Source: Lytechinus pictus (Eukaryota). From it: DNA of 64,000 nt. Location: the NCBI RefSeq assembly GCF_037042905.1, contig NC_087245.1, forward strand, positions 3,970,001 through 4,034,000, read 5' to 3'. The position numbers were made by a program, and so were the translations under genes. How positions within the stretch are numbered: position 1 is the first letter of the stretch; each line of letters starts with the position of its first letter. Below are positions 14,355-50,111 of the stretch, in pieces. The notes under the pieces are model-generated. The model was not told the origin of the DNA and did not search any database. It saw only the letters and a program-made list of their open reading frames with translations.

Positions 14355-15147
14355 TTAAGCTTGTGTTATAAAAGGTATAAGAAAATGGATGGAGTTTAGC
14401 AAAGTTTGATGGTTAAATATTTGTGTATGAACATGCTGTCTTGTTGGATAGAATGATTTGCTGCTGTGGATTAGATTGAGATTATGCATGAGTTCATAAT
14501 TCCTCCTTACTAGTCTCTCCATTTATGTTCATTCTTGGATGATCATCATCATGTCTGGCTGACTCCTTAGCATTTCAATTAAAATAGTTTAAAAGAATTG
14601 TATGCCAATGAATATAGCTTATTATACACAAGCATGCATTAAATAAAAACCTTATTGTTTCATACATGTAGAAGCAGTAATATATTGACTGTGTATTTTT
14701 GGAAACAAATATATTCACTTCTTTATGAAGATCTCCAGTAATATTCTTGCTGTTAACATTTTACCAAAACTTTAATCATTTCAAAACAATATTTTTCGAC
14801 AATTTTTCTTTTTTTATCCTGCATTCTGAGCATTGAATGATAATACTTATGCACAGGTGTTTGCGTTATAATATATTCCTTCATCTGTTTTTATTTTTTT
14901 TTAACCTCATACCTTCCTGGGCTATTCAGACACTATTCTTACAATGCAGTTTATATCTGGTTTACAGGAACATTGAAATTACATATTCAGACATCTTTCT
15001 TTCCTGGTAATATGAGGATTAGTGCATCTAGTTTGTACACAGGTGCATGTAATGAAAGAGTGCTGTCAATCACTGGAATATTTGATGAACAGAAGCAGGT
15101 GTTGTGACATGTTCATCAAACATTTGAAATCAATCATTCATTAATAT

Positions 15148-15220
15148 AGGAGCGCCTTGAGCACCTAACAAGGTGGATATGTGCGCAATATAAATACCCT
15201 ATATTATTATTATTATTATT
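15148..15220 (+). mobile_element. 5'-truncated 3' end of an L2/CR1-type LINE or related SINE with (TTA)n tail
   Basis: agcgccttgagcacc...ggatatgtgcgcaatataaatacc followed by (tat)n is the typical layout of an L2-clade/SINE 3' tail. The family is not identified. Confidence 0.6.
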
Positions 15221-18200: not shown

Positions 18201-21200
18201 AATGACCTTGAGAATACGATACTAGAATGAAAACATTGGAAGCTTAGAATGGGAATGGATACCACGGGTGACACAGTCTAAGGGTGATAAAAGGAACGAC
18301 TAATTCGGCTATTGATTTCGTTCATGCACTGAATAGCATGATTCATTGTGGGTTTGAATTATAGCATTCATGAATATATGGATGGAGGATTCATAGAAAG
18401 ACATAAAAATGAAGAATTAAGAATGTTGGAGGGATACATTTCTATGGAGGTTGACAATGGAGAGAGAGGAAAGGAGATGGAGGACCGAGATGGGGAGAGG
18501 GGAGGGCGACAAGGGATTTTATTTTGTTTAATAAGTTCCCCATAATAATACATACATTAAGGTGGATTGAGGCAGAGAAGAAAGAGGATAAAACCATGAG
18601 AGCTAATTATAGAAAGATCAAGAGAGAGCGAATAGAAATGAAAGAGAAAGAAAATGTTGTCTAATGTAGAGTATCGTATCTCCACGCCATTAATCCAGCT
18701 ATGGTCTGTTCAACAATGATAGTATCATTTTGCTGTAAACCATACCACGTCGACTTATTACAATCAGCCATATTATGGGTCATTTCATGCATAGCTAAGT
18801 GAACATGATAATATTGACCTTGGTTCTGTATGTTATCAGATATGTAGCATGGGGGAAAGCATTGGAGATTCGATTGGCTGAGATAGAAGATTGTGTAATA
18901 GGTTTTCTGGATTCTATTTCTCTTCTTTATAGCCAGAAATGGTGTGAGAAAAATAATTTGAAATATATTCCTGTATAAATGGGTGTCTTTATACGGCCTT
19001 TGTGTCTGAATGTTATTATCTTGTTACATCAAGAAGGACATTTTGTATGCATTAAATTTAATGGTATCTTTGATAGTGCAAGACCTGGGTGTTTCCTCTT
19101 GGTGTTGAATCTTGCCAATTTGAATCAAATTTCTCAGAAAATAACTGCTTCATACAAGGTTTTAGGAGATTGTGTTATATGTGTTTCTCAGGTCTGACAT
19201 TTTCAATCATATCCCTTTATTTCTTTAAATCCAGATTTGTTTTTTCAGTTCCAGCTATGACTTTAGCCAAAAAGGAGATTCCTCTGCTATTCTTTTTATT
19301 TTGAATCTACCTGTCGTACTACTAAATGTGATTGGTAATATACATATGCACCCTGTCTGATATACCATGACTATTGCAGCTGTGTGTGCTTAGTTTATCC
19401 ATGGAGGAATCAATAGCTATGCAATCAACTTGTGAGTGTGTCACTCCCTGGCCTATCCTTGTTGTGAAGATATGAGCTGGACTTGAAGTAATGGATCTGT
19501 GAATGATCACTTTCAACGACAGAGAGAGAGAGACACACAAAAAAAGAAGGAAAGGGGGGATGAGGGAGGTAGAGAAGAGGGGGCTGGCTTGGGAGAGGAG
19601 AGATGGAGAGGGGAAGGGAGTGTAGGAGGAGATGTTAGTGGGTGTGTGAGGAAAAGATTCAGACAGAGCAAATAAGAGAGAGAGAGAGAGAGACCAGCTG
19701 ATACCCTCTACTAGATGTACAATGATAAATGCTGAATGTGACTGGTGGTGTTGAAGTAATTGAAGATGACTTTTGTTGCATATCTCAAGGCCATTCATGG
19801 TAAATAACTGAATAATGAATGATATGGAGGAGAAATAATTTAGAATCCTCATGAAAAGGGATTTGTCAAGGAAGAAAAGCTATTATCTGTCTTGGAAGAT
19901 AAATAGTTAATTCCATGTGATTATTCTGGTTTGAAATTGTGCATTATGAGTTGAGCCGTTAAAGATGCAGCCAAACTTGGGCAGATGAGCATCATTCCTT
20001 TCTTGATTCTGAAAATGCAGTGCGATTCCCAAGCAAAACAAAGTTACTCTCTGAACATTTTGGTGATTTAAACATCTTTAAACGGCATACCCCTATTCTT
20101 CAGTGTGTTTCAATTAACATAATCACTTTGACTTTCTTCTAGAATTCAATCTTATGCTCAGAAAGCGTGCTTTATCTTTAAAGAGAGAGACGGCAAATAG
20201 AAATCATTGGTGGTTGTACCACACCCCTCTAATACCTATCCATCAAAGAGTTGAGGTGTTTTAAAGCATTGCCCAGGAGGGAGGTTGGAAATGCATCTCA
20301 TTCTCTGCCTTGGGTATGGTAGCTCTTACACGGTCTGTTCACATTGTTACATCCATTCATGTTCATGATCATCACTTTGTGTATTTGAACTTGCATTGGA
20401 AGGTCTGTTTGCATAGCTATTCTTGTTATGAATGTCATTGATTTCATGATTGTGTAAGTGTAAATGTAGTTTGTAACAGTAGTTGTTCATATCTGTGTAT
20501 TTTTTATAATGGAATTTGGAAATGGAACATTTCTAAAGTAGTATGTCCTGGGGGAAAAGACCGGATCTGAAATGAAAGTGTGATTGATAATGGGTTTCAT
20601 TTAAATAAAACTTTTTAAGAATGAAGATTCAAAGAAGCAAAAAAACTTTGATTCCTAAACTAGACAGAAAGTGAAAAACCTCTATTTCTAAACCATGCCG
20701 CAAGGAACATACCTCCCAAGTGATCAAAATTTTCATGAATTGTTATGTATTTCATTTGAATGCGATATTTCTTAGTCTGTTTTCAAACATTAGATTGCTT
20801 CGATGCTGAGATCATATAGCACATATAATTCTGAATGAATACTAAAGAAGAAAATAATGGATGATCATTTCAGCGGCAAGTGAAATAATGATAGAAACTT
20901 CAAATATTAGAGTGAAACTTCAAATAGTTCTTTTGAATAAACATTTGAAAAATATCAAATACAGCTGTGGGGGAATCATAATTCATTAATTTTCTTGTTA
21001 GATATTAGAATCATCTACACCTTTAACAAAACTACAATTCAAAAATAGAGTTGAATCAATACTTGATTGGATGAAATGCATTTTACAGATTTTTAGAAAC
21101 AATATATAAAAGGAAACATGTTTGTTTAGCGCTTCACTTTCTTCTCACTGTTTTCATATGACACATCTTTAATCTTGTGGAAAGCAACCCCACAAACAAA

Positions 21201-23549
21201 ATGCGCCATACAGTTTTAGACAGCAATGCAAATGTAGATGGGGGAATTCAATACTCTCCTGTTGTGGAAGACATTTTCCCTTGTATTATATGTCATGGTT
21301 GAACAACAGCTTTTATGCTTTTCCATTAGGTCTGAAGGATATGGATACTTACGCCTTCACGCAAGCGTGCCATAGAAATATTGAAGAGTCTTGTCAATTT
21401 ACATAATATTTCTGCAGATCTTTTTCATGATGAAAGATGAAATGACATGGAGAGTTTACTCATTGAAAGTCAAGAGGATCTCAATTGTCATAGTTAATTA
21501 TTTGATGGAGGATTGATGGGGAAATGATGTGTAATTTGCCTAATGGGAGCTGGAAATCAGAAAAACATCGGTAGCTTGATGAAAATTGTTGAGATGGTAT
21601 TATCGGAGGGTAATTAGCATAAAATCAAATGATAAATCAAATCAAACTAAACTAAAAAATTATTTGGTATGTACTTTCACAACTGGGTTTATATTCACCC
21701 TTTTCACTTATTGTGTGAACTCAAGTTTAATATTGAAAAAATGAAGAGATTGGAAATCAAATAGAAGACAGATTTTGCTTCCAGTTTTAATGTTAAATTG
21801 AAGTAGGAAGCTGTTTGATATTTCCTTGATTGATATGAGAGACAAAATCTTGTAATAAAGAAAGAAGGAGTCCGGAGACAGACATTGAATTGACAAAGAA
21901 AGGATAGTATGACAGGCTATCATCGAGAAAGAGTGAAAGAAGTGTAATAGATATGAAGAATTCTAAAGAGAAAGTGAGAGGGGGGGGGGGGAGAAGTCAG
22001 CGAAAAATAAGGAAAGAAAAAGATGTGGGCGGGAAATCTTTAAGGCATATCACTTCAAAGTCTAATTATAAACTTAGAAGATCCATGTCAGTCCTTTCAA
22101 TTTTCAGGCTTTCAGAAGTAGAATTAATGGAATGAAATAGCAGTAAGTGGTATCCATAACATTAGGGGAAAGCGAAGGTCAGAGGGCAGACCCAAGGCTA
22201 TAATATGATCCATCAAGGTCAAAATTAACAATTAGGAAAGATTTCCTCCTGGTTGGAGAGGATTTGATATGGGGCTGAGATTTCTCAGTGATGGGGGCAG
22301 ATGAATTATTAGAGGACACAGATTAATGTCAAGTTCACCATCATGGAACGGATGGTAATCTGAGAGGACCCTTCCCGACCCCTAGGAATGAGAGTAAGAA
22401 GAGGATGTCAAAATGATTTGTTTTGCCAATAGGGGGAATATTCCATTTCACTATGACACGGCACATTTTTAGAGTTGAGCTGGTAACTCTCTGATCTCAC
22501 TATGATTTGGTGGAAAGACTAATTTTACAGGCAGTTATGATGGAGATGTCATTTTATATTATCCTTCAAAAAAAAAAGAGAAAAAATAAGGGAAATGGAT
22601 CATTCCTGTTTTTGTGGAAGGAACGTAAGTGATTAGAAATATGAGAATCAACCCCGTGAAATGTCATGCACTCAGAGAAACCAATAGTCAAAGCACAATA
22701 TATAGGATTGAGTTGCCTCAGAACCAGAGGGCCATGTCCATTACGGAATAACTTTATGAATTAAAAATAAAAAGAATGTATTCAAAAGGAATCATCATCC
22801 CATTTTGTGAATAAACATTTAAGTTAAAAGATTATGGACAATATCAGGGGAATAACATGACTTCTAAATTAATAGCAATACATTGATTGAGATGAAAAAA
22901 AATTAGACATTAAGGTCATCAATATAATTCATTACAAATCTGTCAACACACCAAAAATTAGAAAAAAGCCCCCCAAATCAGGATGGCCTAAACCTTGAAT
23001 GGAGTACTCGTATGTAATTTGTACCAACCGACGGGTATGATACAAAAGCATACAATTTTGAATATGGAAAGAATGGAATGAATGCAGACTAATAGTAGAC
23101 CTCATGCATGAACTTGACACCAGAGATAAATAATGTCAACAGAAATTCATGAGACTGGCTGAGAAGCAGTGATGTCCCTCTTGCATTGGCTGAAAGGTTT
23201 GTAGGATTGTTGGCTGGGGATACCAATATTGGGAGCTAGGCTTCTCTCTAGTAGCATCATCAAGCTACCATGTGAATCATACACTATTTGTTTTGAGGTG
23301 ATGGTGCATACATAATGTGTGCTTTATGATTAACTTTCTGTACCACTGAAAGTCTCACCTTCCAATGTTTATGATTATGAATTCACTGTTGGTGATAGCA
23401 TCAAGACGAGAAGATTATTTTTATTTCATTTATTTATAAAAATATTTCAGGCAACTAGTAATAAAACATTGCTAGTATTCCATTATTGCCAAGTGTCTCT
23501 ATGCACTTTCAAAGAACCTTTGGTATCATTTTCCTGACTAATAATATGC

Positions 23550-23776
23550 AATAAATGTATCTAAGCCATGCATATAATTAACCTGGCTTTAGCATAGCTA
23601 TCATGATCAGATGCTCAAGTGTTGAAGGAGTTTCATTTTCGTATGGGTACCAATAGGTGAAGGGTAGTGAATTGTAGATTAATGTCTTTCCAAAGGATGC
23701 AAATGTTGTGGCAGGATTTGAACCCTGGACCTCATGATTCAAAGTCCAGAGACTTATCCACTGACCCACAACACTC
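23550..23776 (-). mobile_element. Degenerate tRNA-derived SINE
   Basis: The minus strand reads gtgttgTGGGTCAGTGGataagtctctggactttgaatcatgaggtccagGGTTCAAATCCtgcc, i.e. Pol III A- and B-boxes at tRNA spacing, followed by a non-tRNA body. The 3' boundary is approximate. Confidence 0.7.
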
Positions 23777-26700
23777 TACCTGAAGCAACCCAAGTGATGA
23801 GGTACTCAATTGCTTCACTTGGGTTGAGTGCAGCACAACAGTGATGAATTTCTTGCTGATTACATTTTTTTTCAAACATATAGGAAAATGATCTAAAGGA
23901 ATCCCTTAAGCTTTTAATTCCAGTTAACTGATTAAACAATGTACATGAACTACGATAAAACAACTTATAACACACAATCCATTACAAACTAGATTAGAAA
24001 CATATGCAGTTATATACAATGTGGCACTTTGTATACCACCAGTATACCACCATAAAACCTGTTACAGCTTACACACTTCTGATTAAGGACTCGGCGCTTG
24101 CTTATGTATGCAGAATGGCATGCATGCTTATGAATCATAATGGGTTAGATTCCTTCATATTCGTTGATGATGAGGAGGAAAAGAGGAGGAGAAAATTGTA
24201 ATTTTAAGAGACAAGAATGACAGGTAAGGAACACCTGACATACCGAAACGGTGATTTGAGTGTCAGTTTCACGCATCTTATAAATTTATAATTGCTGCGG
24301 TGGCTTTAGAGTGCGAGTGGTTTCCATGGTAATAGGCATGTAAAGGTATTGTCTTGGTGGTGCCCAGGGTCATCTAGTATCTTCAAGGACAATGTAGGAT
24401 AATAAGCAATGTGGTGTTCAGTTTGGGAGTATGAATAGCCATGAATAATTCCTCTACTTGGTCGAGTCTGTAATAAATTTCCTGTTTCGGTACAATATAT
24501 TTCAGCCCAGTTTTGTGAAAGAATACATACTCTTTATTTTGGTTTGAATATTAATTTCAGACCTTTAAAAAAAGTGATAGAGCACTGGTCATGCAATCCA
24601 GGATCCTGGGTTCTAAACCAAGTCTGAAACAAAGTGATTTTTCACATTGTTTTCTATGATTAAAGGAAAACAAATGAATTGATATTTTGAGAGACAGATA
24701 CACACAAAGACAGAGATAAGATCCACTCCCCACACTCCCTCTTTTCTTGTATTTAGTAAGATAGAAATCCACATTACAAATTTGGGAGGGGTCTTAGTAA
24801 AGATGCAGTTGTACCAAACCATTTGGTTTTTGTGTTGTGTTTGTGCAGTAATAATAAAGCAATTCCCCTTTTAAAAAAGCTTCCACATTTAAAACATTTG
24901 TTTTGCCAAGACTTAATTGAATTCTCACTCAGACTTGTGTGTAGGTAGAGTATTAGAGAAACAAACACATAAATCCATGTGGTTTGCCAGCCCATGTGAT
25001 AAAATGTCACCAATGTCCCTAGATAACATGATCTGCCCAACTTGACCATGTTTGGTCAGGGTCTCCTGGCTTGCTTCAGGGTTGCAGTATATGCTATCAT
25101 CACCTGAGACACAGAAGGACTTTAGCATTCACAATCTTACATTCGATTAATGCCCTTTAGCTCTGAATACTTGATATATGAGAGACATGATTGAACGAGA
25201 CAAAGGGCTCTTAATGGCATGGATCTACAGAGGACAGCTGTGGGGGAAATGTTATAGTACATGCTTTGAAAATTAATGGTAAAATTCCAGAGAACAATTC
25301 CACATTTTTTTTCTGTTGAGTACAAGAATGTGTAATATCCTATGGCAAAGCATGGATCTGTATTTTGCCAATCTCAACCCAGATGTTATGATATAGGTAC
25401 CCAGTATGATGTGCAAGCCAATGTATGTTAAGCTTTTTAGCTTGAAATGCTTCCCTGGAAGTGGAGAAAGTGCATTCTTTGTATGTGGGCAAGCTGGAAT
25501 CTGACACGCAATGTAAGGCGCTTCCCATGTATTTTGTGCTTACTTATATATATATATATATATGTATGTATGAAAATGAATATATTTCAATGCAAGCCTT
25601 TTAGTATAGTTGTATGAATATAATTTACTTTGGGTAAAGGGTCATAATATTCACCTGACTATATTACCCATTACTTTCCCACTCAACCCTTCCTGGATCC
25701 AACTCCGAACCATTGTCTTTACATACAGGATCCATCTTGATGGACACGATTTTTCCCTAAGGACACTGATTGCTTAAACATGTGTACATACAGCTGTGTG
25801 ATGTTTGAAAAGGGACCTAACATCTTTATAACACAAGGGAATATGTATGCTTGTCAATCAAAGACATTGAAGTCTTTCATGATGATCTAAAGAAGATGAT
25901 GAACAACTGAGCATCAAACACACTTTTGAATGCCTTTTCTTCATTCTTTTTCTCACTCTCTCTTTTCTGGTTTATTTCACCCTTTCCCACACATACCATT
26001 TTTTTTTGGGGGGGGGGGAGCTGAAGGATAATTAATGTTAAGAATTATTTGAATGTGAAATTCAAGCTTGAGTCATTGTGAATGTGGTGGCATTGTATAG
26101 TAAAAATGTAATTTCAGTCAAAAGACTAATGATGCGGTAAAGAATGCCAATCTCATTTTTAAAGTGAATGTTCTTTGGTCTTAATATGTGAAGGATGCCC
26201 TTACTGCAAAGATGCTAGTTCACCTTCAGATTTTTGTTTTTGTTTTGATGTAATTTAGATTAACCACAGTACCAATCTCTTTTAACAGAATAACTATTAC
26301 TGTCTTTTTTGTTGTCATAATAGTAGTTTGGGAAATTCATCAATTTGAACGATTATTAAAAAAAACTAAGATCATCCTATGTGGCTAGCCAACATAATTT
26401 TATTGTTTGGATGTTAAACTTTCTTTGCTAGAAGACTGAAGAGTGCACCCCCATCCCCTGCGCATAACATTATATCCTTTTGAATCAAAGTAAACAAGAA
26501 GACTGTTAGATAATGTTAAAAATGGGCTTGCAAGTGCAACCTTTGTATGTAGCATTCAAAATGAAACACTTTATTTTTAATGTGAATTGTTTGCAATTGT
26601 TTAGGAAGGTGTAACATTTCTTTGCTATCTATTTGAACAGTAGGTCATTGACTTTCTTTTGCCTGTAACTTTTTTTAATTGTATTAGAAATTCAAAGATT

Positions 26701-29700
26701 GATTAAATTTGTCTTCTGGACAGTTGTAGAATTTCACATAAATTGGAATCTTACATGGCTTTTCATTGAATGTCACAGTAAAATTGTTGAAAGAATCATT
26801 CCTTTTGGACTCTGGCAATGTTGATCAAATTTCACCGTGAAAGATCTCATTCAAGATGTGGACATATTCTGTGTCTCTTGGGAAAACATCATTTTATATC
26901 TTACAAGAGGTTTTAGTTTTCATATCATTACTGCCTGAAGAGAGACAGAACATTATGTAAAACTGAATGAAGCCATTGGGTATACGGATTCCATTACAGC
27001 TCGAATACACAATTATTCAAATATCCATTTTTCTTATTTACATTGAACTGTATTTTTCGGTCAGGGACTGCGTTATCCTGAGAAAAATGCCTTTTACTAA
27101 TTTCCTCTGCCATTTTTCTCATTTTCCATCTCTATTGTTTGTGTCCTTAAAATGGAAGTGCAATTAATCTGTGGTCAAAATGAATGCTACTATTCAACTT
27201 CAAATCAAATTAAGTTCCACACAGTTTTTCGACAGACATGTTCACAAATTGTGGTTGATTGCAATATCATCATAATGGCTGAAACAGTTGTTCAATTATC
27301 CAAATGAAGGCGTTTCAGAGTCTCTCGCCAAACAAGGCATTCTCCCTCATTTTCTGCTTTTTTCTACTTTTATTTCTTTTGTCTAGTAGTTAGTCATCTA
27401 CACGTAATTCTGAAAATGAGAATCTCTGGACAGAAATGTAGTTGCACCGTTCATGATTTCCGCATATCTTTATTCCCTTTGTACTATTTCATTGAGAAAC
27501 ATGTGACTACTATATCTTACTGGTATCTCTTTGCCAAAGCTATTTTGCTGCAGGCTCAATTTTTGGTCTAAAAGATTGGTTCACCTCAATTATTCTGCTG
27601 GGAATTGGATTAATTTCAGGAGTAAAATGGACCCGATGCTGACTATACTACCAGGCCAGGACAGAAACCTACAAATGCACTTTCTCCAATTTTACTAATG
27701 CATCTCAATTTTTGCTCATTCAGAGCTTCATTTCTTCCTCCTGTAGTTCTCTTGTACATCTCTTTAGGTTAATCTCCTATCTCTATATCTGCATTTTTAT
27801 TAGCCAATGTCCTTATGGCTCATTGGCCTAACAATTTTATATCGGTTCTTCATGATTTTGCTACATAATACGATTGTTTGTATGCCATTACCTGATTTAT
27901 CATATAATTTCCCCTTCCATTAAACACTTATTGTTTTTCATAAACTTAATTGTTGTTATCATGTCCATCCAAACTTGCTTTCATGAAATCATAATTAATA
28001 ATTGCAACAAACTTTCTAATTCTCATTTTGTTTTCATAACATTCTACACGGATGTGATTGAAGAGAGAGACACACACGTACCTTCTATCGCAATGCTTTC
28101 CCACTCTTGTTAAAAGCCCCCCTGCCCTGCCCTGCTTCTCTTTCTCTCTTTTAATTTACATAATTTTTTACACCACTTCTTAAATTCATCCGATATAGTC
28201 CAAGCTTGGCCCAATATCCCACATCTTCATCTTACACTGCATGCCCACCTTAGACTATTCCAACCCATAAACATTTCATGGATCATTTCTGCGAATCTCC
28301 ATCTCCATGGCAACTAATCTCATTGATGCATTAACCAAGATATGCTGTGGATTTAGGAATGGTTAATCCAGCAATATAGGATTATCTCCCACTCTCTGAT
28401 CCAGTTATAACCATGTTTGATGCAGTGCTTCTCAGGTAACAGTGAGGAGCAATAGTTAACTCACTGCTGGGAAACAGAAAGAGGAAGAGAAATAGAAGGA
28501 GTTTAGGTAATGAAGAAATATAAAAAAATTGGGAAATAGAAGCAGGGAAAAGGCTTTAATGAACACGTAAGAAACACTTATGATACTAAGTCACAGTGAG
28601 AGGAATTACACACAAAATCACCCTGCAATATAGAGATTTTGGATTAAAAAAAGAAAAATGTTGAAGATAAAGACAAAATGTAGATTGCACACCACTGAGA
28701 GGAGATGGGGAACACCTGATGGACTGTCATAACATGTAAGATGTGAGGCTTGATAACTCTGTGTTATATAGGCATATTATATGATGGTTGACAGACCTAG
28801 AGATGTGTCTGAGATATTGATGGGTTATGGTGAGAAAGATTAGAGGATGATGCATGAAGCTTTGAGATGTGAATGGGAGTTGAGGTAAATGAAAACAAAT
28901 CTAATACTTGTATTGAATATTCAAGAAAATGAAGGAGCTATGTTAGTTGAGATGGAAAAATGACAATCTAATGGAGGAAACAGATTATAGAGGAATTGAA
29001 AGGATAAAGTGAGAAAGAAAGAGAGAGATAAGAGACTGGAAGAGGGGAGGAGAGAGAATGAGAAATTGGTTGGAGAAAATGAACACTTTAAATGAGATTA
29101 ACAAAGACAAAATATCAGATGAATGTACAAATCTGCATTGATAACATTCTTGTATGAAGAACAACAATTTATTAGTGATTACAAACTGTGATATGTCATC
29201 TGTATAATTTTAATGGACATATAATAAATGCAATATTCAAGATAACAACTGTAATCCTACAGCTTTAATAATAACAGATGATTTAACCATTGTATTCATG
29301 CAAGAAGAAAAAGAAAATAGATGAAATGAACATGAAAATATGTGTCAACAAGAAAATATAATGTTGCTGAAAGTTGAAGATGATTTTTTCCCTCTTGCTT
29401 AGTTAAAACACATATCCAAGAATTACCTTCAAAACCTGTCACTCAAGATGACAATTAGTGGTTGAATTGCCGCTGGACTATTGCATTAAAAGCTACAAAT
29501 CTGGTGTGGCAGTATCTAGCCAAGGGGAAATATATCTATGTATTGGCCCCATTCTTGTTTTATTTAGCAATAGCAGGCGAAATATGCATTCCTATACATT
29601 GCCCATTTCGATGGTCTAAAATGGGATAATTTCCTGTCAAAAATGGACAAGAGAGGGGATGAAATATTTAGGTTTGGGACAGGTGGCTCTGAGATGGATT

Positions 29701-30082
29701 TTTATATAGAGATGAAATGAAATTGGTGTTGGAGTGTAGTGAAGATTTCTATGATCTCATTTTGATGAATGGAATTGAGGAATAAATTATTGGTAGCCAA
29801 ATGCATCATGTACAATTTGAGTATATGAAAAATAGATTGGTTGTTCTTTATGAAGGTTGGTGGGAGAGAAAATGTCATTTCAGCCTCAGTAAAGCTAGGG
29901 TGAATGATGAAACTGTTTCATGTGATATTGCATAAAACTATGTAAAGCTTTATTTTACAAATGGCCATATTATGACAAGCTAGATACTCTTAAACTAAAA
30001 TAAAACAATCCCTTATAATAACCTCAATTAACATGATATTAATTTAAATTGTATTTCTACTCTTTTCTTTTCTCTGTTGCAG

Positions 30083-30123
30083 GTAAGATGTTTTCTAGTT
30101 AAAAATTACTTTGATGAAAGATG
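30083..30123 (+). other. Candidate 41-nt non-coding/poison exon starting at a recursive-type splice site (AG|GTAAG)
   Basis: Long polypyrimidine tract tttctactcttttcttttctctgttgcAG is followed immediately by GTAAGA. A second consensus donor ATG|GTAAGT lies 41 nt downstream. No reading of the exon joins the 54463 exon in frame. Confidence 0.6.
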
Positions 30124-30959
30124 GTAAGTATTGTCAGACCTTCATTAATTATTGTGCTATGCGCATTTGAACAACTTGCTTTCAAACCTCAAATGCAGAA
30201 AAAATACTATTAAACATAGATGAAAATTCTCTTTTCAGATTAATTCAGCAATTGAATTGCAAAGGGTAGCTTTAATGATCTGTTCCATGTATGATTTTAG
30301 TTTTTGTTTTGTAGTTTAGCATGTGCCTGACAAAAGCAGGTAAAATGAAATATGATTTATGAACATTGTGACTGGGTCAGGGCTTGAGGATGTAATTTCT
30401 GTCCTCATGAACAAGACTCTCTCTTCGATGTCATTGACAAGAAGATGACTTCAAACAAGACGAGTGTTGTTGGAGGACTCTCAGTGGGCTGTTATTTCCA
30501 CTCTGTCACCTCGATCCAGCCAATACCAGAGTCTATAATGCTAGTCAGATTGGCCATGCCATGCAAAGTTTACTTACCGTACCAGTCATCATTTATACTG
30601 GACTTCCACTCGCCCCTGCCAAGCAAATACATTTGTCATCTTATTTGTTGACAGTGGCTAGTTTTCCATACAAAGGAACACTTTAGAATACTTTTTTACT
30701 TGGTGAGACACTAAATGTTATGTCTTGATTAAATGATTAGTGAAATGTTTCTATTAAGAAGATGCTTTCTATTTTCTGATTTAATTATGTATTCCTTTAT
30801 ATGATATAAACATGCTTAATATATGCTGCAGTGTTATAGAACAGTCAAATGGTTATTTTAGAAAACAAATATATTGCCCTTGTAAGGTATAGTTGTGTAA
30901 ATGCTTTAAGAAAATATAAATTAATATTATGACAAATTTATGCTAAGCTTAATTTCGTA

Positions 30960-31234
30960 CACTGCTAGAAAATTTATCCTGAAATAAAAGAAGTTCCTGC
31001 AGCAGTCTCGAGAACACATGTAATCTTACCAGATTGCATAATCTTACAGGAAATTGGTATTTGGTTTATGGAATCTTACAAATTTACTTGAATAAAACAT
31101 CCTTTTCCCCTTTTTAAACAGACCTGTTCTGTTAAATTGCAGAAAAATTCCTGTTTTATGAATTTACAGAATGATTCTGTTATTGCATTCTGCAAAATCT
31201 TTTTTTCTGTAAAATCACATTTTTTAAAACAGCG
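30960..31234. mobile_element. Degenerate short MITE, TA-flanked, CACTG...CAGYG termini
   Basis: ta-CACTGCTAGAAAA ... TTTTAAAACAGCG-ta imperfect TIRs, with internal ttacag/ctgtaa-like sub-repeats. Confidence 0.4.
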
Positions 31235-34200
31235 TATGCATGTCATAACGGTGAGGTTCTTTTGATATTTTATGGAGACGGAACACTATCTTTTACAGCT
31301 ATAATGTTTCAACTCCTGTTATTTCATATAAATTTTACACCATTTACATATTAATAACAAAATGGCCTTCCAAATATGGTTCTTCATGGTTTGGTAATAT
31401 ATGACACCAAAGAGACCTAGTGGGAACTGGCAATATATAGCAAGGACAGTATTGCACAAAGCAGCATGGTATAACCTTGTTAGGTGCAGTACAACAGCTT
31501 CCTGTATGTAGCTCACCATAGATTATCATAGAATGCTCTTCCTTCAATAGAAACCTTGTCGCAGGCTTGCTGCTCGATTCATTTCTTCCTTGATCAAATG
31601 TCAAGTTCGTTCAGCTATCGATACATTAATATTGATTCAATCGGGCCATGGGCTGTATAGACTCTGCCTTTCTCTTTCCTATGTGTTCTTGCTAGTGGGC
31701 ACTGTCTTATTTAATTCTTCATCAAGGTCTAGCGATGATTGCCATTGAGAAGTGCCTCAAGGATATCCCCATATATCTCACCATGTATCTCTCATGATCT
31801 CCTCTATCTTCTACATCAAGTAAGGTGACAATAAAGAACTATTAATTAGGAGCGTGCATGTATAGGATACAATTAACTTGCTCAAAGGAGTAATCCTAGG
31901 AGTTTCCAACATAGAAAGAGTTTCATAGAATGGTTCATAGAATGGTTCATAGAAGCTCATGCCTAAAAGGTATTTGTATACTGTTACTAATTCATGTAAC
32001 TCAGTCTTTCATGGAGCTGTTGTTAGTTTCAAGATCTTGATGGAGTGACTATGCATATTTATGTATCTGATGTTTCCTAAGTATTTTCCTGTTCTTGAGC
32101 CATTTTCCTTCCTTTTTAAAGTTTGGTTCCCCTTAGCATTTTTAAGTCATTCATGGATAAATAGAGATTCAAAATTGGTTAGCATAATATTTTTGTAAAA
32201 AAAGAAAGTTTACATTTTCTTATTTGATAATTATTTTGCTTCTAATATTCCTTTCCCATTACCATGAATTAGAAGGCAGTCCAGATTTACTTCAAGTTTT
32301 GTGTAGAAATCTTTTTTATAAATGACTTACATTCTGAAATTGCATTCTATTTTATATGCTTGATTGAAATATTAGACAACAATCTATACTATTTTATTTT
32401 ATTCATTTCAAAGCCAATATCCCATTTTCCCGAATTAATGACAAAACATAAATGGTGGAAAGCTAGTCTCAATATCATCAGAAATGACCAGACTCCTTCC
32501 AGATAAGTCCTTGATGATGAATGTTTTCATTGCTCAGGCTTTACCTAACCCCAGACTATGATAGATCTATCATGGATCTCATGTGAATCACTTTTCATTA
32601 AATTTTTAGAGGCAAGAAGGCTTTCCTTTCCTTGGCTGTTTCCTCCCAGACCCACATCTCCCAGAATTAAGCTGCCTAATTTGATTAATATTTTCTCGCA
32701 GATGCGCAAATCTTTCACCGCCCCAGCGCATGGCTTTGAAGCAAGGCAGTCATGTTTGGAAAGAAAGAGAGCGGGGAGAATTATTAGAAGCAAAGATGGA
32801 GTCAGAGTCTAATCAATATTTCTGCATGACTGGAAACATAGAGCCAATGACTTGGGCAGGATATTGAAGAGAAATATCACACATTCACCTTTTTTTTTAA
32901 GAGGGAGAGAGAGAGAGAGAGAGATAGAGACAAATTTTCTGTATTTAATGCTCAGCATGATACCAAGATTGTAACGGTGGAGGAGGAATATTGTGAGGAA
33001 AGTGATATATGTAGAGATAAGATAGATATTGGAGAGAGAGGGAGAGAGAAATGAAGACACAGATAGAGATGTAGAGTGAGATTGGGTATATGTCATAAAG
33101 ATAAATGGAGATGAAATAGAGTAAGAGAAATTGGCCATTTGATGACCTCATTTCTTGAGAGTGTTGAAGTCAAATCTGTATATAGATATGATGTCATATG
33201 GCTTCTTATCACTGTTGTGGTTCAATAAGAGTGTCGGTACATGAGTGCCCATTCCTAGATTTCAAATTGATCAGGGATGATGCAGCTGTTAAAAGAATCT
33301 CTAATGTTTGTGCATGTATTCCATAATCAAAATAAACTTTTTTCCTGCATGGGTCCTGTTGCATAAAATCTAGATTTCCTTGAATTTGATTGGCTGTAGA
33401 TCCATTTTTCATGGTAATTACCATTAATAATATAAAATTTCATAAAATATTGTATATTTGAAATGAATATTCTAGTAAGTTGTTTCTGAATAAAAGTAGT
33501 TGAAGGAATGACAAAGTGGTAAATACAACAAAGGGATGAATTCTTTTGACAGAAAAAATAATACCTTTTTAATAAATATGATTAGTTGAATAGGTGAATT
33601 AGAAAGCAGACTTAAATCTTTCTTTAAAAATTGATTTCCATGCTCTCATTGTATTTTGTGTACACCAGTGGGAAAGGTAACAAAAGAACATTTATATTAT
33701 CTTTACAATCAGAATGATGTTTTTAAAGGATAAATGTAAGTTTTCACTTTTTCTTTCATTCAGAGTCAATGACCTGCTGAATTCAAACAGGAAAAAGCCA
33801 AGCCATTATACAAATCAATCTCAAATGCATTTGTTGCATGTTTTGTTTTTCCAGCACAGATACAAAGAACCCCTATACTTCTGAAGTGAAAATATGAGGT
33901 TTGAGATTTTGTTTTTCCTGTGTTCATTGATGGAGAAAGCATCATCTTATTTTTAGCTCCAAGGACGAGGGACAGTAAGGTAGCACCACTTTCTATTAGA
34001 ATTTCATAAGAAGACAACGACTTTACCCCAGGAGTATGGGAGTTTATTCACACAAACATTATTTTAAAAACATAATAAAAAGTAAAAAAAAACTATCACA
34101 CTTCTTGATTTCCTGTCTTCAAACATGATATGTACAAACATATTATTGTTAGTAAGATTTCTACAAAAAGTAGAAAGCAAATGACATTAGTTGTTGTATT

Positions 34201-37200
34201 TCTTTCTCTGGATGTTGATTTGTTAAATGTGGTTTCAGAGAATTCTATGATAATTTGTTGTTGACTGTTACTTCAAGCATTAGTTATTGTAAATTAAGTT
34301 TGAATTATTGACTTCTTTCCCTTACTCATGAAGTTTACTTTAGGACAAACATGTTGTGGATGTGTGATGATTGCCTGTTTTGAACATTATTTGGTCCCTG
34401 CCATACCCCCCCCCCCTCTTTCACCACCTCTTCATCTGCATCATATATATGTTACTTCCTTCTTGTCTTGATTAAAAAAACCATATGTTTCAGACTAAAT
34501 GAAATGGGTAGATAGGAATCCCTTTAAATCATCCAGCTTCAATTTGAATCCAAAGATAAGTAGTGTATATCGCTATCTACATTAGATGTGTACATAGTGT
34601 TTGTAGATATTATGTTAAAAATGTAGTATGATCATCACTTGGCGTAATACTTTTATGTTGTAGTTGATATTGGAATAGTATGTTTTATCTTAGGAATTAA
34701 TCCCATGTTTTAATGAGTTAGTCTATAAAAATACTTAGCAAAATCTTTATTGTGCTTCCCCATATTTGAGGTCTTTGTCGATATTTATTCCATTCTTATT
34801 TTTACTCTAAAAAGATAGAATTCATTGGTAACATTTCGATGCAGTTATCCCATTTTTATTTCTCTCTTAAAAACAAGATGGAATACATTGTTAACATTTC
34901 AATGCAATTGATATACTTGTTAATAGATTTTTTTTATGTTTAGATTTAAAAGTGATAATGAAAGAATAATAAAGCCAAATGTTCAAACATACATGTATTT
35001 TCAGCTATATCTAAAAAAAAAATTCTTTTCATTTTAGGCGTTGAAAATTTCCCCCATATTGAAGTAGATTGACCTATCTGGTGGTACTGTAATGAAAAAA
35101 TGAGACTTGAATTCCTGCCAGCTTCTGTCATCATCTTCCAATATACCAATATTCTCATCCTGGTCTTCTGAAACCATCAAGACTTTATTTTTGACCCAAA
35201 TATCTATAATTTCTTTTGAGTTAACCTCATTTTGAAGGCAGGCTTGTCCATATGGTTGCACTGATGGGGCCTATGATGTATAAGGTTCGTTCACATTTGA
35301 GGCTGTGTACCTTAATAAAGTAACAACCAAATGGAACGTTAAGGGTGATCTGCATTTTACTGTCTCTATTTTCATTGTCCGCAAACATTTTTTTAAAATA
35401 TGTTTTCCATTTTTCCTAAAATTTGCAGTCTTGAAATTTAAAATATCAATTTTTCCTATTGTGGTTGATGGAATTAGCTTAGCTTATTTATAAATGTGTA
35501 TACCGAAGATTGTCTTGTTGGAATAGGCTTTTTGTTAAAACAAATATGAGAAATATGTTTTGCTTAATCAGAAACTAAAGGTAGTTATTACAACGCTTTC
35601 TCGGTTTCTTGTTTCAGTAAAAACCTGCTACATCTAAACACAATCTTGAGAACACTTCAAAATATCATATGAAATTATTCAATTGAAACGCATAACCGAG
35701 CATTGGTCTACCACTAGTAGACATGGAAAGTATATTGAATGTTAGACTCAAGGGTTATAACCCGAGTGTTGTTAAATGGAGAGTTAAAGGGGCTGGGTTA
35801 ATGCACACAAAAAATAGCGAATAATAAATCTATATTAAAAATTGAGTAGAAAAGGGCTATCTTGATATAAAAATGCCTCTATGAATTCCTTCAATACTCT
35901 ATTTCATCAGGGTTTTTTTTTTCTAATCATCAGCCTGTTTTAAATGCAATAAGAATGGTATTCTGTGTTGAATCAATAAACACTTGGATGCAGTTAGTTT
36001 ATAATAAAAGCAGGCAAATTTCAATGAATTTAGCAATTTCTTTTTGTCTCTTTAACTGTAAATGTATTCTTTGAAAAAGAAACAAATAACAAACCTCTAC
36101 ATATTTGGAAACTTCAAGTATGATGTTATTGTCCTATTTTATAAGAAGGCAATGATTTAAAGGGTTTCAAAACTGGACTAAACAAATACAAGCAGAGTAT
36201 GTCCTAAAAACATGGTATTGGGGGTTCCATTAAACCTCATTGTACTCCATTGCTAATGATGTATTACAGGATAAAGTCATGTAATTTGAGGCGCAATGCT
36301 GGTCGTCTGCGGTGTCCGATAACATCCCAGTGCGGGTAAATTCCACTAGTCTTAGTGACGCCACCCCCTCATAAAGGCGGCTCGCATCCCCATTTCCGTC
36401 ACACACTTTACCAGCGCCCCGTTTCCCCCCTCTTCTAATGATGTCATAAACAAGGTATAGAAATGTTATGTGCTACAAGTGTTGTGGCCTATATTTGAGG
36501 GTTAATTTCTTTCATTATACCATTTGCACTCTCGAGTTGCAAGGATTGATTTTGATATAAATTGGGGCGTTGGTTGGGTCCGATTACGGGAGATGTATGG
36601 GAATGTCTAATGAGTTGAGCATAGCAAGGAGAGGCGTCGGGATGGGGGTTGATGTTGTGTGATTAAATGCTGTGTCTGGAGGCATGGTATGGTGTGATAT
36701 GAGAATGTGTCTGAATAATAAAAGGCTTATGAAAGATATGATAGATTGGTATCAGTAATGCTAGGTTTAATGAGGCAGTACATATTGATGGTAGGATGCA
36801 GTGTACACCCTCCCCCTTGGATGGTGCCCCTCCCCCCATTCCTCTCTCATTCTGATCCTTTTCATTCCTTATCTCTTTTAACTTTTACTTCTCTCTCCCT
36901 CTGTTCCTCTCTTGCTCTCTTTCATGTTCTCTCTTTTCTCTCGCTATTTTCTTTCCTACTTTGTCTTCCCATATTCTTGTATTTTCTTTTTCTGTATCGT
37001 GCACTCTCAATCTCAATCCTTCCCTTTTTTTCTGCTTTTGATTTGTGATACTGCATATCTCTTCCCTTTACCATCTAGCATAGTGCCATACTTCAAATGC
37101 AAACTGATTTATCATACACTTCATAACTATCAATAAGCAATCATTTATTAAACCCTCTCCCTCCTAAGAACATTAATATTCTTGGTTGTTATTTTACGAA

Positions 37201-40099
37201 CAAGATTTTCAAGTTATATTGCTTTGCTTACTGACAACAGCAAAGTGCCTATATGGTTGCGTGACCGACCACATAGTTTGGTTGCCCCAGGCAAGTGGTC
37301 AAGTGGTTTTGTAGCCCTCTCCATCTCCCTGATACCATTATGTTAATGATGATGCTATCCATAGTTTCCATGGTGATATCAAGCTGGTGGAAGACTCTTG
37401 GTAAATATGAACAATCGTTTACTGCAACAAGATAGAGGAGAGGAGACCTTAGGTTGGCTAGATTCTCACGTATCAAGAGTATCTGGTAGCAATGTAAACT
37501 ACTTCAATGAATTATTTGCCATGAAATTGGCGTGCCTATCGATCTAATTCTATTTGCTTAGATGGAACATTGATATCCTAGAAAAAAATTATGATTACTG
37601 GAATACGATTTGTAGATAAGATTTGAGATTGCAGAATGAATAATCCATTTCTATGCAATGTATGTATCTAAATTTTTATTTGTTTATGATTATGATTATT
37701 ACATTATACCATTTCATTTAAATTGAATATTATTTTCACTGAAAACTTATTTTGTGTTAACATTAATCATTTTGATGGTGAATGCTTTCCATTGCCACAT
37801 CAAACTTCCAAAGATGACTCTTTGTGCACATTCTTTATTTTCATATTTAATTGTTTATTATCATTTTGAGAGAGAAAAAAGGAAAGTTTGTACTTAAGAT
37901 GCAGTGAGGATCATTATAAATATCTCTTCAGGTTTTGAAAATGAGAATCTTATGCACGCGTTAGGAAATGCAAATTCACCGGCATGAGCTACAGATTCTT
38001 TCTTGATGTTTGAGATATTCTTAATCGAAAGCAACACCGATGGTCGCTGGAGTGAGTACATTAATTATTCACCACACACTATCTGATTCTGACTTCTTGA
38101 AATGATAATGGCAGCATTAAAATGATATGTAGACACGTGCCTATGTACGATATAGGTCCACTGTAGTCTACATCTCTAAACATGTTGATATCATGTTGTT
38201 AGAGTATATTGTAAAAGAAAATATGGTATTGAATGAAAATTAGAAGTGCAATGAGCAGGTAGTCTGAGTTACACCATGAAAATAACACTGTTATTGGACA
38301 CACTGAAAAAAAGGTGTTCTGTGTTAAAAATATATTTTGAAAAACTTCCTCAGATGAATGGCTTTGGGCAATTAGTATTTGTGATTTTTCTGGGATTATT
38401 TTTTGTACATAATAATATTACAAAGTTTATTCACAGAAAGAATTAAGACATGGTGTCTATTCTTTCTCTTGTTCATCCGTCATTGAAATCTTTACTTCAT
38501 AAAGGAAAGTTAGTAAGGAATAACTTGAATTGATTCTGATTGCATAAGACTAGGTGGCTTATTTTCATGAATGAAGAGAGATGCTTAGAAAGATGAGTGC
38601 CATTAGCCAGCTATCTGTATCCTCTAATCTAGGCCCTCTCATTAAATATCCTCATTTATTCTGCCTTCTCTCTCAGACTTCTCTTTCCACCTATCTTCAT
38701 TTTTATTAGTTATTCACTTGTGCCATCTTTTTTATCATGATTATTTTATTATTTACAATATTGGTTTTCTCCTCTTGATATTTTTCTAAAGCTCAATTTC
38801 ATTAGAAATGGTAATTTCTTATTTAAAGTTCAGAACATTCTAATTTTCAATGATTTGAAGTTATTCCAAATTGACTGAATATAGTGTCCCTCAAACAGTT
38901 GATTTATTTTGAATCCTAAGTATTTCTTTTGAAATATGATTGATTTAAATTCCTATTTTAGCCTCATTCAAATCCATAAGGTTTTTTTTTTAAACTTAGT
39001 CATTATTCACAGCCACTCTGGATTAATTTCAAATATTTTTTTTGTAGTTAATATATCCATTCCTTTATTTCTTCTATCGTTCTTCCTATGTTTCCAGTTG
39101 TACTTTTTAATTTTTAAAATGCTCATTGTAACATTTCTGTATGGTTTATCTTTCATATGGAAATGTCTTGTGAGCATTTCCTCTTCTTCAAGCCTGCTCC
39201 CATCTTTCCCTTTTTATCTTATGGAGATGTTAACCTATCACATTTCTATTTTGAATGATAACTTGAAAGAAAATTCTTTCTTTGATACTTAGTTTGTGAT
39301 AAGAGTCCTAGTATAAGATGGATTTCTTTAAAAGGCACATCAGACAAGTAATGCTATCCATTCCCGACTATCCTATGTTTTTAATGCTCGTCACGTCTCG
39401 CCGAATTTCACATCCACTCCCCAGCGTCTGGACGCCCAGATCACCTCAAGGGCCTTTGCAGACGAGCGTGTCGGTCACTTTATGCAAATGGGCTGGTCAG
39501 TGTGAAATTAATATGGCTAGTCGAGTGAGTCATTAAGAAAAGAATTAGAAATAACATCCCTGTATGTATGTATCCCAAGGCCTATTCACAGTGAGAGTTG
39601 AATACAGCCTGTTGTGTACTCATCTATGCCATTATGTCTTGTTAAGACCTGTTGCAGCACTTTATCTACAAAATACAATATTGAAATGTGATATTGCAGT
39701 TTTGGATTGCATAATGAATCATTCCACTTTTAGAAATAAAATTTTTGTATGTCTAGGGCTATAATATTGAACGTTTTTAGCTATATTTATATAAAATTTT
39801 GTTTTTTAACCCATTGCCTACTGGAGCCAGGTGCTCTTTTACAAAGCGTATTGGAATCACAGAATTCATTAGTGAACAGGTTAATCAAAATTTAGGTAGA
39901 ATGTCAGAAATAAATGAGTTGATTTTATTTTCTGATTGGGATATTTGTTTGAGGAATCAGGAATTACTTATTAGTGACATTATGTTTCAGAATTTTAAAT
40001 TGACATCAATGTAATTAGTTTCATCATTTTACATTACTTCCTACTATTTTTAATAAAGCATTATTTATTTTGTAAGTTTGTTACATTCATATATTTATT

Positions 40100-40271
40100 T
40101 GTTCAATTGGTTGTTCGAAGTCCAACTCATCCAAAATCCAACACATGCCTGTTTTAGTGGGAACTTCATTTGGCTTTGGTAATAAATATGTTCAATTGGT
40201 TGTTCGAAGTCCAACTCATCCAAAATCCAACACATGCCTGTTTTAGTGGGAACTTCATTTGGCTTTGGTAA
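40100..40271. repeat. Exact tandem duplication, 2 x 83 bp with a 6-bp insert
   Basis: 40100-40182 is identical to 40189-40271 (read base by base). The copies are separated by taaata. Confidence 0.95.
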
Positions 40272-41821
40272 AAACCCATCCCTTATCCCAAAATGAATCG
40301 ATAACCCTGGGTTTGACTTTCCAATTTAAATGGAAGGTATTCATCAGAAAAACATGGGGATCCTAGGGTCATTTCAATTTAAAACTATTTGACCACTCTG
40401 ACTCACCATGTGTCTGCCATCTGAGTGGATACTTGAAGTGATCTATCAATTAATTACCACTGACCATTGTCCTGATGACCACTGATAGTGACCAATGGTA
40501 ATGACCATTGCTCTAATGAGAATGAGATAGTTTTGTTGATGGTTGGATTAATTGGAATGGAATTAGGCATGATGTAGATGCTTTGTTTGGAACTGTCCCA
40601 CATGGTATTGATGCTTGGAATATCATTTACAGATTCTAAGTTCTTTTCAAGGCATGCTTTTCAGTGCTGGGTTGATTTTCATTAAAGACAAGACTATGCA
40701 AGAATATATAATGTGAATTGCTTTATGAATAACTACATAGTCATGGTCTGTGCAGAGTACATAAACTTGAAGTCATGGATAAGTGGTTAAGAGATATGCA
40801 CAGGATGTTTAACCTAAAAAGTATAATTTTTGTGTCCTTAAAACTTATATTATTGATTTAGAATAATATGTAAAATTAATATTAAGAACAACAATATGAG
40901 ATTCTTATTAAATATGCTTAACACAAGATTGATCACTAGACGTCTCTGAAAGTTTAGTCATATTGAATGGCTTATTAGATAAGAATACCGTAATCTGAAA
41001 AATGGATCAAAATGTCATAATTTAATCGGATTCCTATTGTTGTTAATATAAATTAAAGTTAGGAAAATATAGACTCAGAACAGTGCCTAGTGGGTATATG
41101 CAACTGCCTTGTTTTGATATGGCACCAACAAGTTGTTTCAACGCCAGGAGGTGTTATAACCCTGACCTAAACGCACTTTCTCCATGAATATTTATGAGAA
41201 GTGATGTAATATTTGACCTTATTAGCCTAATTTCACCCATAGAGTCCAATCATACACCCAAACAGACGCCTGCTGACCTCTTTATTTGGACTGGACAGAC
41301 ATACTCTGTCCACTCCAACACCATCAGGATCTGGACGATTCATCAACATTAATTTTCAGCGTCCGATTTTCGCGACACTGATCATAAATTCTTGCATCTC
41401 AGTCCCATCCACCCTCGGGCCTTGTGATGATGTCGTTCTGCCCCGATTGCACTGCTACTGTCTGTTTGGGCCTCTTATTTATTGTTTTGTCAGATGAGAA
41501 AGATATATTAGTAGGGTCAGTTATAAATTGCCCATCATGTTGTTATGATGAGTCATATTGTATAAGGTCACGCAGTATGATAAACATGTGATGAAATTAG
41601 CATCCATGAGTTCCAGAGAAGCCCTGATCCAACCATTTATACTTGCATCCTTTGGCAAGGCATTTATATACATGTGCCACTCTAAATCCAGGTGTAGTAA
41701 ATGGGTACTGTCGGGTGGGAAGGAATTCCTTGAATGCTTTAGCATATGATTTCAGTAGCCACGCTTAAGGGGGGTAATAGTACGCACCACTAACAACATT
41801 GAATTAAGCGTTATTCTTACA

Positions 41822-41951
41822 AATGTTGGGCAACATACTGTCCACAATACTGTGTAGTTTTCACCCAAAGCACACATTATTGGTTCAAACTTACCCAGAA
41901 TTGGATAAAGTTTTTACCAATTGTTGTGTGGACAGTATGTTGCCCAACATT
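41822..41951. mobile_element. Small MITE-like foldback element
   Basis: Perfect 25-bp inverted repeat aatgttgggcaacatactgtccaca (41822-41846) / tgtggacagtatgttgcccaacatt (41927-41951). The true termini may extend about 10 bp further. Confidence 0.7.
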
Positions 41952-43329
41952 CTTAAAAGTGTATCTGTAGGTGGAAAAATTACAGATTATATTTTGAAGT
42001 TGGAGATTAATCTGGTGACACAGTTAAGCATCGGAGGTATCTTTAAACAGGAGTTTCTGAATCAAGCAATAAAACAATTTGACACTTGGGTATTGACTAT
42101 GAAGTGACCATTAAATCTGTGTTAAGCTATGTTGTGGTTGTTCTAACATCCCTTTGAGTCAAGAATATGTCACCATTTAACATCTGGCTTTCATTAGAAC
42201 ATGTTCCCAACTGAATATTATGAATATTTATAGACTAGAGATTCATCCTAATAAAGTAGGATTTAGTCAAACAAAAGTCATCAATCGTCATTTGTTTAAA
42301 TTGACATGAATCTCAAAAGGTTTATGCTTAGAATATTTTGCAATTATATTGTTGCTCATTTGAATAGTCATGTAACACTATTTGTGGGTGCTGGGTATAT
42401 CATTCTCAGCAGTCTTTCATCATTTTGGTGATCACCGAACTCGCAGGATAAACTGATCATCAACATTTTCTGAACACTAAACTTAGGCAATTATTTTTTT
42501 ATGCGGTTTTTACATGGGTATGCACTTGTCTAGTTCCATTTCATCTTGTGTTAATTTGAATTTGATATACCTGAACATGTTGTAAATCTGTGTCACTCTG
42601 CATAATCAGGAGTGGATAATTTATCTTTTTATTTGTGGTCATGGTTGATGACCATAAATAGCCCATTCTGAAAATGGGTCCCATGTGGCCGAAATCCAGT
42701 AGATTACTGCTGTATTAATTCGCTTGATTCATTCAAGATTTACAACTGTGTGAGAGTAGAGTGCTCGCCAGCCTAATGGGGAATAGTCTCAAACACCAGG
42801 CTTAATTATTTTAATTGAACAGTGTAACCTTTTGGAGATTTAGTAGTTGTCCATGCAAGGTCTCATTTTCTTTGGCATATAGTATTGATTTGATATGGTT
42901 GGGAAAATCATAAATTCCAATAAATGAGCCAGTTGTTGATTGTATGATTTTGCATATTTGTTACTCAAAATAGGTGCAATGAAATAAGTTAATTTGAATA
43001 GGCTGAAAGTGATAGACCAGTTAATTAAAGTGTCAGTTGCCTCACTGAGGCAAAGATTCCATCAAGTATTGATTAATTATAGGTGTTTGATTTTCCCTTA
43101 CTTAGCTGGAAATAAAAAAAAAGGATTGACAAGGCAATTTTTTTCTTTAGAAACAAATGTCCAATAATAATAATGAAGTGATGTCTGCAAAGACAGAGAA
43201 AATGAAGAAGTTATCCTGATTTTGTGATAGAATCTTTGGATTTCAATCTTTGTCCTTCAAACTAAATAGTTGTTGACGTGTACATATACCTGCATTCTCT
43301 CTCCTTTATGAGATCTTTATTATGTATAG

Positions 43330-50098: not shown

Positions 50099-50111
50099 AT
50101 ATAATCTCATG

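Follow-up and report, generated by a model that had tools for sequence, protein, structure and literature searches.

Candidate recursive splice sites with stop-bearing RS-exons in two giant NCKAP5-like introns of a sea urchin

In the NCKAP5-like gene of Lytechinus pictus, two consecutive giant 5' introns each carry a site, here called RS1 and RS2, at which a strong 3' splice site directly abuts a 5' splice site, with a second donor following a short distance downstream. From their sequence, these sites are probably cryptic RS-exons—i.e. ratchet points—and we give this reading a probability of about 0.7. Membership in the ratchet point/RS-exon class is likewise probable, and the feature itself is real, well formed, and probably functional. 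The anatomy of the sites, the sizes and phases of their introns, the stop codons that they bring in, and the rarity of the layout by chance are all direct observations. The mechanism is already known; what is new is the presence of RS1 and RS2 in an NCKAP5-like gene, with RS1 lying beyond the window in which RS2 had been noticed. This window is a stretch of 64,000 nucleotides (C1:3970001-4034000 of the 812-Mb genome), to which 200 kb upstream and 30 kb downstream were added for the analysis.

The initial annotation had called the host gene NCKAP5-like, and homology agrees that it is the L. pictus NCKAP5-like gene. The translation of coding exon D (62739..62936, + strand) is identical to a L. 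pictus protein named NCK-associated protein 5-like, and the N-terminal 165 aa of that protein have 63 relatives at E ≤ 0.001, most of them named NCKAP5 or NCKAP5-like, with the best match in amphioxus (E = 9.8e-23). The family was tested on the N-terminal coiled coil, the map stopping short of the C-terminal PF15246 region. Coding exons C (54463..54526, ending in Met 54524) and E (63616..63705) lie on the same + strand, and exons A and B were placed by tblastn with amphioxus and further homologous proteins. Specifically, coding exon B (C1:3969869-3969936, + strand, window-relative -131..-64; donor AAG|GTAAGA) shares 62% identity over 24 aa with the homologue P0070, and a probable coding exon A of low complexity (C1:3912892-3913006, + strand, window-relative -57108..-56994; donor GAG|GTAAGA, phase 0) matches P0071 at E = 1.5e-8 with the filter off. 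A single open frame runs through the joined exons A, B, C, and D.

Because exon B ends 64 nt before the window, intron B-C (+ strand, 1..54462 within the window) measures 54,526 nt, and it is in phase 2, as expected from the earlier description of a phase 2 intron of more than 54 kb. The preceding intron A-B (+ strand) is 56,862 nt long and in phase 0, and the following intron C-D has 8,212 nt. The two database proteins of the locus, P0001 and P0005, are fragments of 204-226 aa without exons A and B; P0001 starts at Met 54524 and P0005 begins with Met-Arg. The start of each is placed in exon C or immediately upstream of it, so homology is the basis for the long A-B-C transcript. For the Met-Arg start of P0005 there are six ATG-AG/CG donor candidates in intron B-C, none of which is convincing. 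The 3' ends of both proteins pass a donor near 70.65 kb and read into the intron, and compared with many homologues of 1,800-2,200 aa these database models look incomplete. We looked for an exon upstream of exon A and for an exon after 70.65 kb in the following 23 kb, and found neither. Past 70.65 kb there are two weak YAG|GTAAG sites (near 71.7 and 79.7 kb, with 13 and 10 pyrimidines out of 20, respectively), both without a downstream donor. The 200 kb upstream (L007-L021) contain reverse-transcriptase-like and other mobile-element ORFs, recognised by eye, on the - strand near -145, -142, and -111 kb; a neighbouring gene may be the source of lysine/glutamate-rich ORFs found around -183 kb on the + strand.

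RS2 lies on the + strand of intron B-C. As first reported, a strong acceptor abuts AG|GTAAGA at 30082/3 and a second donor follows 41 nt on: CAG at 30080-30082 is directly followed by GTAAGA from 30083 (CAG|GTAAGA, 30080..30088). The polypyrimidine tract of this candidate recursive acceptor (30054..30078, + strand) holds 23 pyrimidines out of 25, has TT at -6/-5, and sits inside a 97-nt AG-free zone, the nearest upstream AG being at 29982-29983. Pattern matching also returns candidate branch-point-like motifs at 30028..30045 (+ strand; TTAAC at 30028 and TTAAT at 30039). The competing downstream donor, ATG|GTAAGTAT (30121..30131, + strand, junction 30123/30124), would close a candidate cryptic RS-exon of 41 nt (30083..30123, + strand), and it is the sole + strand GGTAAGT in the window. 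RS2 ranks first by pyrimidine count (18/20) among the 27 + strand YAG|GTRR sites of the window, and the surrounding 400 nt are single-copy in the genome. The next coding exon, exon C, starts 24,380 nt further on, which matches the distance of 24 kb given before, and RS2 would split intron B-C into 30,146 and 24,380 nt.

Splicing of exon B to RS2 would give AAG|GTAAGA and so recreate the 9-mer of the natural exon B donor. Inclusion of the 41 nt would shift the frame and bring in a stop at the very next codon (TAA, 30084-30086), both of which had been predicted, with an in-frame TAG at 30096-30098. The exon also holds three ATGs (30088, 30114, and 30121), all of them out of the protein frame and all reaching a stop before Met 54524. 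We considered and rejected the 41-nt exon as a coding microexon, given that its sole open frame ends in TG, which makes TGA with exon C, and that the phase does not fit.

A scan of 264 kb with the criteria already set by RS2 yielded RS1, a second candidate RS-exon of 107 nt inside intron A-B (C1:3947896-3948002, + strand, site at window-relative -22104), of the form YnTAG|GTAAGT ... AAG|GTAAGT. The RS-exon layout recognised at RS2 is correct, and the case for it is strengthened by a second site in the preceding giant intron. At a threshold of at least 14/20 pyrimidines, the scan returned 5 candidates on the + strand and 2 on the - strand, and the two strongest on the + strand are RS2 and RS1; one - strand candidate with 19/20 pyrimidines lies at -194446, far beyond the mapped gene. 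RS1 has stops in all three frames, and its inclusion would end translation at the ninth codon. Neither exon can code, both being frame-shifting and stop-bearing.

RS1 would cut intron A-B into 34.9 and 22.0 kb, compared with 30.1 and 24.4 kb for RS2 in intron B-C. Exons A and B end in AG, and consensus donors would therefore be rebuilt at both junctions. Exon A joined to RS1 gives GAG|GTAAGT, and at the sequence level the two regenerated donors match or surpass those naturally present at exons B and A. The tract adjoins the AG at both sites, and both acceptors have 18/20 pyrimidines vs 15, 14, 14, 18, and 14 for 5 real acceptors of the gene; TT at -5/-6 is present at RS2 and absent from RS1. 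Each of the two consecutive giant introns has exactly one strong-tract site, and this site is on the sense strand. Specifically, 2 of the 7 sense YAG|GTRAG sites in both introns reach at least 16/20 pyrimidines, compared with 0 of 6 on the antisense strand, and no such strong-tract site was found on either strand of the 8.2-kb intron C-D.

How often would this arrangement arise by chance? YAG is followed by GTAAG in 11 of 13,121 cases in the 264 kb, and a GGTRAG lies within 150 nt of random positions at a background of 0.039. Acceptor-like tracts at 16/20 number 125 on one strand of the 264 kb and 100 on the other, and 29 sites of this kind, with 16/20 pyrimidines or more, lie on the sense strand of intron B-C. 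Using local frequencies, the 16/20 threshold, and an assumption of independence, the number of motifs expected by chance is 0.024 in intron B-C and 0.019 in intron A-B, or 0.00095 and 0.00075, respectively, when a downstream donor (G|GTRAG within 150 nt) is included. As RS2 had been singled out by eye among many windows, its chance figure alone overstates the case; RS1 was found after the criteria had been fixed by RS2 and is, as such, the fairer test.

At the scale of the genome, the strict motif shows no clear excess, and strong-tract sites are few. The pattern Y14-N4-YAG|GTAAG, designed to fit both RS1 and RS2, has 44 matches in 812 Mb vs 36 in a reversed control, RS1 and RS2 being two of the 44, and Y14NYAGGTAAG has 21 matches vs 39 in the reversed control. 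By our own count, at least 18 of the 44 belong to one repeat family on many contigs, poly-C + TTCATCTCAG|GTAAG, which would inflate any ratchet-motif count in this genome. GTBAG variants of the Y14-N4 pattern, counted by eye, total 49 (22 GTCAG, 13 GTTAG, and 14 GTGAG), and the roughly 26 GTAAG matches outside the family compare with 22 GTCAG and 13 GTTAG among the dead donors. A further count, 105 YYYYNTTNCAG|GTAAGW vs 61 GTTAGW, was not accepted as evidence, since exons that end in pyrimidines and have ordinary CAG|GTAAG donors fit the pattern as well. The full layout with a gap of 15-45 nt has 2 matches in the genome, RS2 and L030, vs 1 in the control. L030 (C1:1291231-1291275, - strand) is a 24-nt unit with a TAG|GTAAGT at either end; a pyrimidine tract precedes it.

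We also compared downstream donors between 20 non-repeat matches picked from the Y14NYAGGTAAG and Y14-N4 sets, with RS1 and RS2 left out, and the first 20 non-poly-C matches among 35 with dead donors. A G|GTRAG is found within 150 nt in 7/20 of these other genome matches and 2/20 controls (P = 0.064), an excess that is suggestive only, and at least 2 of the 20 test matches (L037 and L039) resemble ordinary coding exons. L039 (C11:21706446-21707046, - strand) and L037 (C8:13669299-13669899, - strand) are apparent coding exons starting with GTAAG, and candidate RS-exons of the annotated type; the exon of L039, which carries a TASHNP motif, presumably encodes part of a phosphoglucomutase/phosphomannomutase. 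Two same-strand pairs within 60 kb are present among the 16 matches left after dropping 28 poly-C/repeat matches, with 0.009 expected (0.07 with all 44 matches kept); one is the NCKAP5 pair, which was ascertained, and the 49 control matches also hold one close pair, made of identical poly-C matches. The second pair (C17:28625896 and 28645807, - strand; L043 and L049) consists of two sites with a tract and CAG|GTAAG, 20 kb apart; neither has an open frame, and their G|GTAAG donors follow after 77 and 52 nt.

The features found at RS1 and RS2—i.e. YnNYAG|GTRAG on the sense strand of a long intron, a donor regenerated at the junction, a downstream donor, and a premature stop on inclusion—are those of ratchet points; of the sequence-level features tested for this class, only the donor-strength tendency and, at RS1 alone, the TT are missing. 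Like the Drosophila ratchet points Ubx-RP, kuz RP1/RP2, and Bx, both sites combine YnNYAG|GTAAG with a strong tract in long introns (Duff et al., 10.1101/006163; PMC8605326). Fly ratchet points have strong acceptors, with TT at -5/-6 in 196/197, and segments of 2.6-63.6 kb, a range that includes those of the RS1 and RS2 introns (10.1101/006163), and 15 of 115 fly genes have two recursive introns (10.1101/006163; PMC8605326). In flies as here, inclusion breaks the frame, segments reach tens of kb, and a single gene may hold two recursive introns; the downstream donor of the short cryptic exon lies at about 50 nt in flies and at 41 nt (RS2) or 107 nt (RS1) here. Unlike the fly sites, RS1 lacks the -5/-6 TT, which may be fly-specific, and RS1 and RS2 are described here at the sequence level.

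Vertebrate RS-exons (Sibley et al. 2015, via PMC5126111, PMC6224609, and PMC8605326) switch in a binary manner between the donor that is regenerated and the one that the exon itself carries, as proposed here, and they share with RS1 and RS2 a premature stop on inclusion, a long gene, and a deuterostome host, although the host here is an invertebrate. The Ubx m1/m2 microexons and the zero-length exon of rat tropomyosin (PMC2773006) also start with GTAAGA or GTAAGT and have a strong donor of their own; however, the Ubx microexons are expressed mRNA isoforms, whereas the RS1 and RS2 exons would shift the frame and stop translation.

Sea urchins have been covered by bulk statistics. Introns of more than 50 kb (n = 209) have 0.540 vs 0.066 RP-sites per 100 kb, a ratio of 8.2 and an enrichment on the sense strand (Shepard et al. 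2009, PMC2773006, Table 2), and these RP-sites have the same motif, intron size class, and animal group as RS1 and RS2. The rate of 0.54 per 100 kb predicts about 0.6 sites in these 111 kb, and 2 are seen here. As far as the consulted parts of that paper go, its counts name no gene and do not consider downstream donors or stops. Annotated RS-exons have also been counted in sea urchin (Blazquez et al. 2018, PMC6224609, Fig. 7). In view of these two reports, the earlier remark that no description was known of recursive splicing in this gene or in echinoderm-like genomes needs correcting. For NCKAP5, our literature search, with most subscription papers outside it, found no report of recursive splicing. 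The same search, within the same bounds, found no experimental recursive splicing in echinoderms, and NCKAP5 is absent from the searched supplements of the human RS surveys PMC6110456 (files 10 and 13-15 excluded) and PMC10156609.

By analogy with these systems, the strong acceptor and the downstream GTAAGT donor would define a short exon (41 or 107 nt) and recruit the spliceosome in mid-intron. The upstream coding exon would then be joined to the hidden exon, and its terminal AG, together with the GTAAG at the start of the hidden exon, would rebuild a consensus donor at the junction. Use of this rebuilt donor to reach the next coding exon would remove each intron of about 55 kb as two pieces of 22-35 kb, and the mRNA would keep no trace of the hidden exon. 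If the downstream donor were to win instead, the exon would be retained, with a premature stop and probably decay. The actual use of the sites, the order of the steps, the ratio of skipping, and NMD are here modelled on flies and vertebrates.

Pairing with U1 is at least as good at the downstream donors as at the regenerated ones, an observation that counts against a pure skip model: by a crude duplex score, the energies are -11.0 vs -9.5 kcal/mol at RS2 and -11.7 vs -10.7 kcal/mol at RS1. In fly cryptic RS-exons the ratchet-point donor is mostly the stronger, and hth is skipped despite a weaker one (PMC8605326). RS1 and RS2, where the downstream donors look stronger, resemble this less common case, and they depart from the fly tendency for the regenerated donor to exceed that of the RS-exon, which has exceptions and is not a strict criterion. 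Because each exon carries a donor that matches or exceeds the regenerated one, there is room for real inclusion. It is conceivable, though doubtful, that RS1 and RS2 are tandem splicing switches rather than plain stepping stones. A regulated share of transcripts would then retain one of the exons and no longer yield the full-length protein, either through decay or through re-initiation at Met 54524, which would give an N-terminally shortened form as in the database models. If true, an invertebrate deuterostome would use recursive splicing to switch dose or isoform, in a mode between that of flies (mostly skipped) and that of mammals (EJC-repressed, included).

Reads were mapped on 24001-36200 from three 2026 rRNA-depleted total-RNA runs (about 6% of each) and from a contig set, X1, taken to be RNA by guess. 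Depth at RS2 is 0 in 3/3 total-RNA runs, with the flanking unique intron also nearly all empty at about 6% of reads used, so that these runs weigh neither way, and joints number 0 in 4/4 runs over this interval. X1 has four unique contig pieces, at a depth of about 3, at 28356-29963 upstream of RS2 and, among the matches listed, none in 30106-30919; this distribution does not have the direction expected of a saw-tooth and is far too thin to weigh much. The sole well-covered bin is a dispersed repeat at 30958-31240, where the RNA reads come from many other loci, are 90-95% alike, and have many loose ends. This repeat, at about 30958-31240, best explains the many small-share run matches (14 runs, X1 alone of them mapped), and among the indexed runs that share sequence none is on record as RNA. 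A search of metagenomes with the 20-nt site pattern gave 5 matches, all 5 in unrelated sequence without tract or second donor, and thus chance.

The room left for inclusion would also suit poison cassette exons, included or skipped in one step, in which the GTAAG start would serve as a stop codon or be incidental, and the regenerated donor would normally be blocked, e.g. by the exon junction complex (EJC). The stops on inclusion at both sites fit such exons, and so do the findings of PMC6224609 that in mammals annotated RS-exons have their regenerated donors repressed by the EJC, and that the sea urchin share of annotated RS-exons is deuterostome-like. We consider this unlikely, however, as it leaves the GTAAG start of both exons unexplained despite the rarity of GTAAG after YAG, and as the GTAAG of RS1 gives no immediate stop, translation running on to the ninth codon. 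That both sites are chance pseudo-exons ignored by the spliceosome would agree with the empty depth and lack of joints at RS2, in an intron whose flanks are equally empty, with the missing genome-wide excess, with how common acceptor-like tracts are, and with the selection of RS2 by eye. Yet the full layout is expected only about 0.001 times per intron, each giant intron has one site, on the sense strand only, and a sense-strand enrichment is published for sea urchin (PMC2773006), all of which makes chance quite an improbable source.

The initial annotation itself had raised another option, in which the 41-nt exon is a 5' UTR exon of a short isoform with an internal promoter and a start at Met 54524; a variant has 30083 and 30124 as alternative donors of an unmapped first exon. 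The start of P0001 at this Met, the Met-Arg start of P0005, which has no placement, the low-depth X1 contigs just upstream of RS2, and four homologues (P0026, P0032, P0131, and P0134) with unrelated N-termini joined at the equivalent of exon C are all compatible with it. It nevertheless appears very unlikely, given that RS1 in the previous intron is unaccounted for, that three out-of-frame ATGs would precede Met 54524, and that all 1-kb bins between exon B and 30083 stay below 38 CpG. Two CpG-rich spots, at 49-51 kb and -63 kb, were inspected and rejected as promoters, both being copies of a foldback repeat. The first of these (window 48965-51026, in intron B-C) is a 2.06-kb MITE/foldback-like element with four nested arm pairs of 149-317 nt, about 900 nt per side, that are 97-99% complementary and flank a 261-nt spacer containing a CAT microsatellite; in the pre-mRNA it would fold into a long stem of dsRNA. 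A related single foldback arm lies near -63.3 kb upstream.

Read as cryptic RS-exons, RS1 and RS2 would offer precise targets with known flanking exons, and a specific case in which to test recursive splicing in echinoderms, in a species for which stable knockout genetics is reported (PMC9245184). In the literature found, experimental recursive splicing is described in flies and vertebrates, and sea urchins are represented by bulk sequence statistics only. Proof at these two sites would bear on whether recursion based on exon definition is ancestral to bilaterians, and on the timing of EJC repression of regenerated donors.
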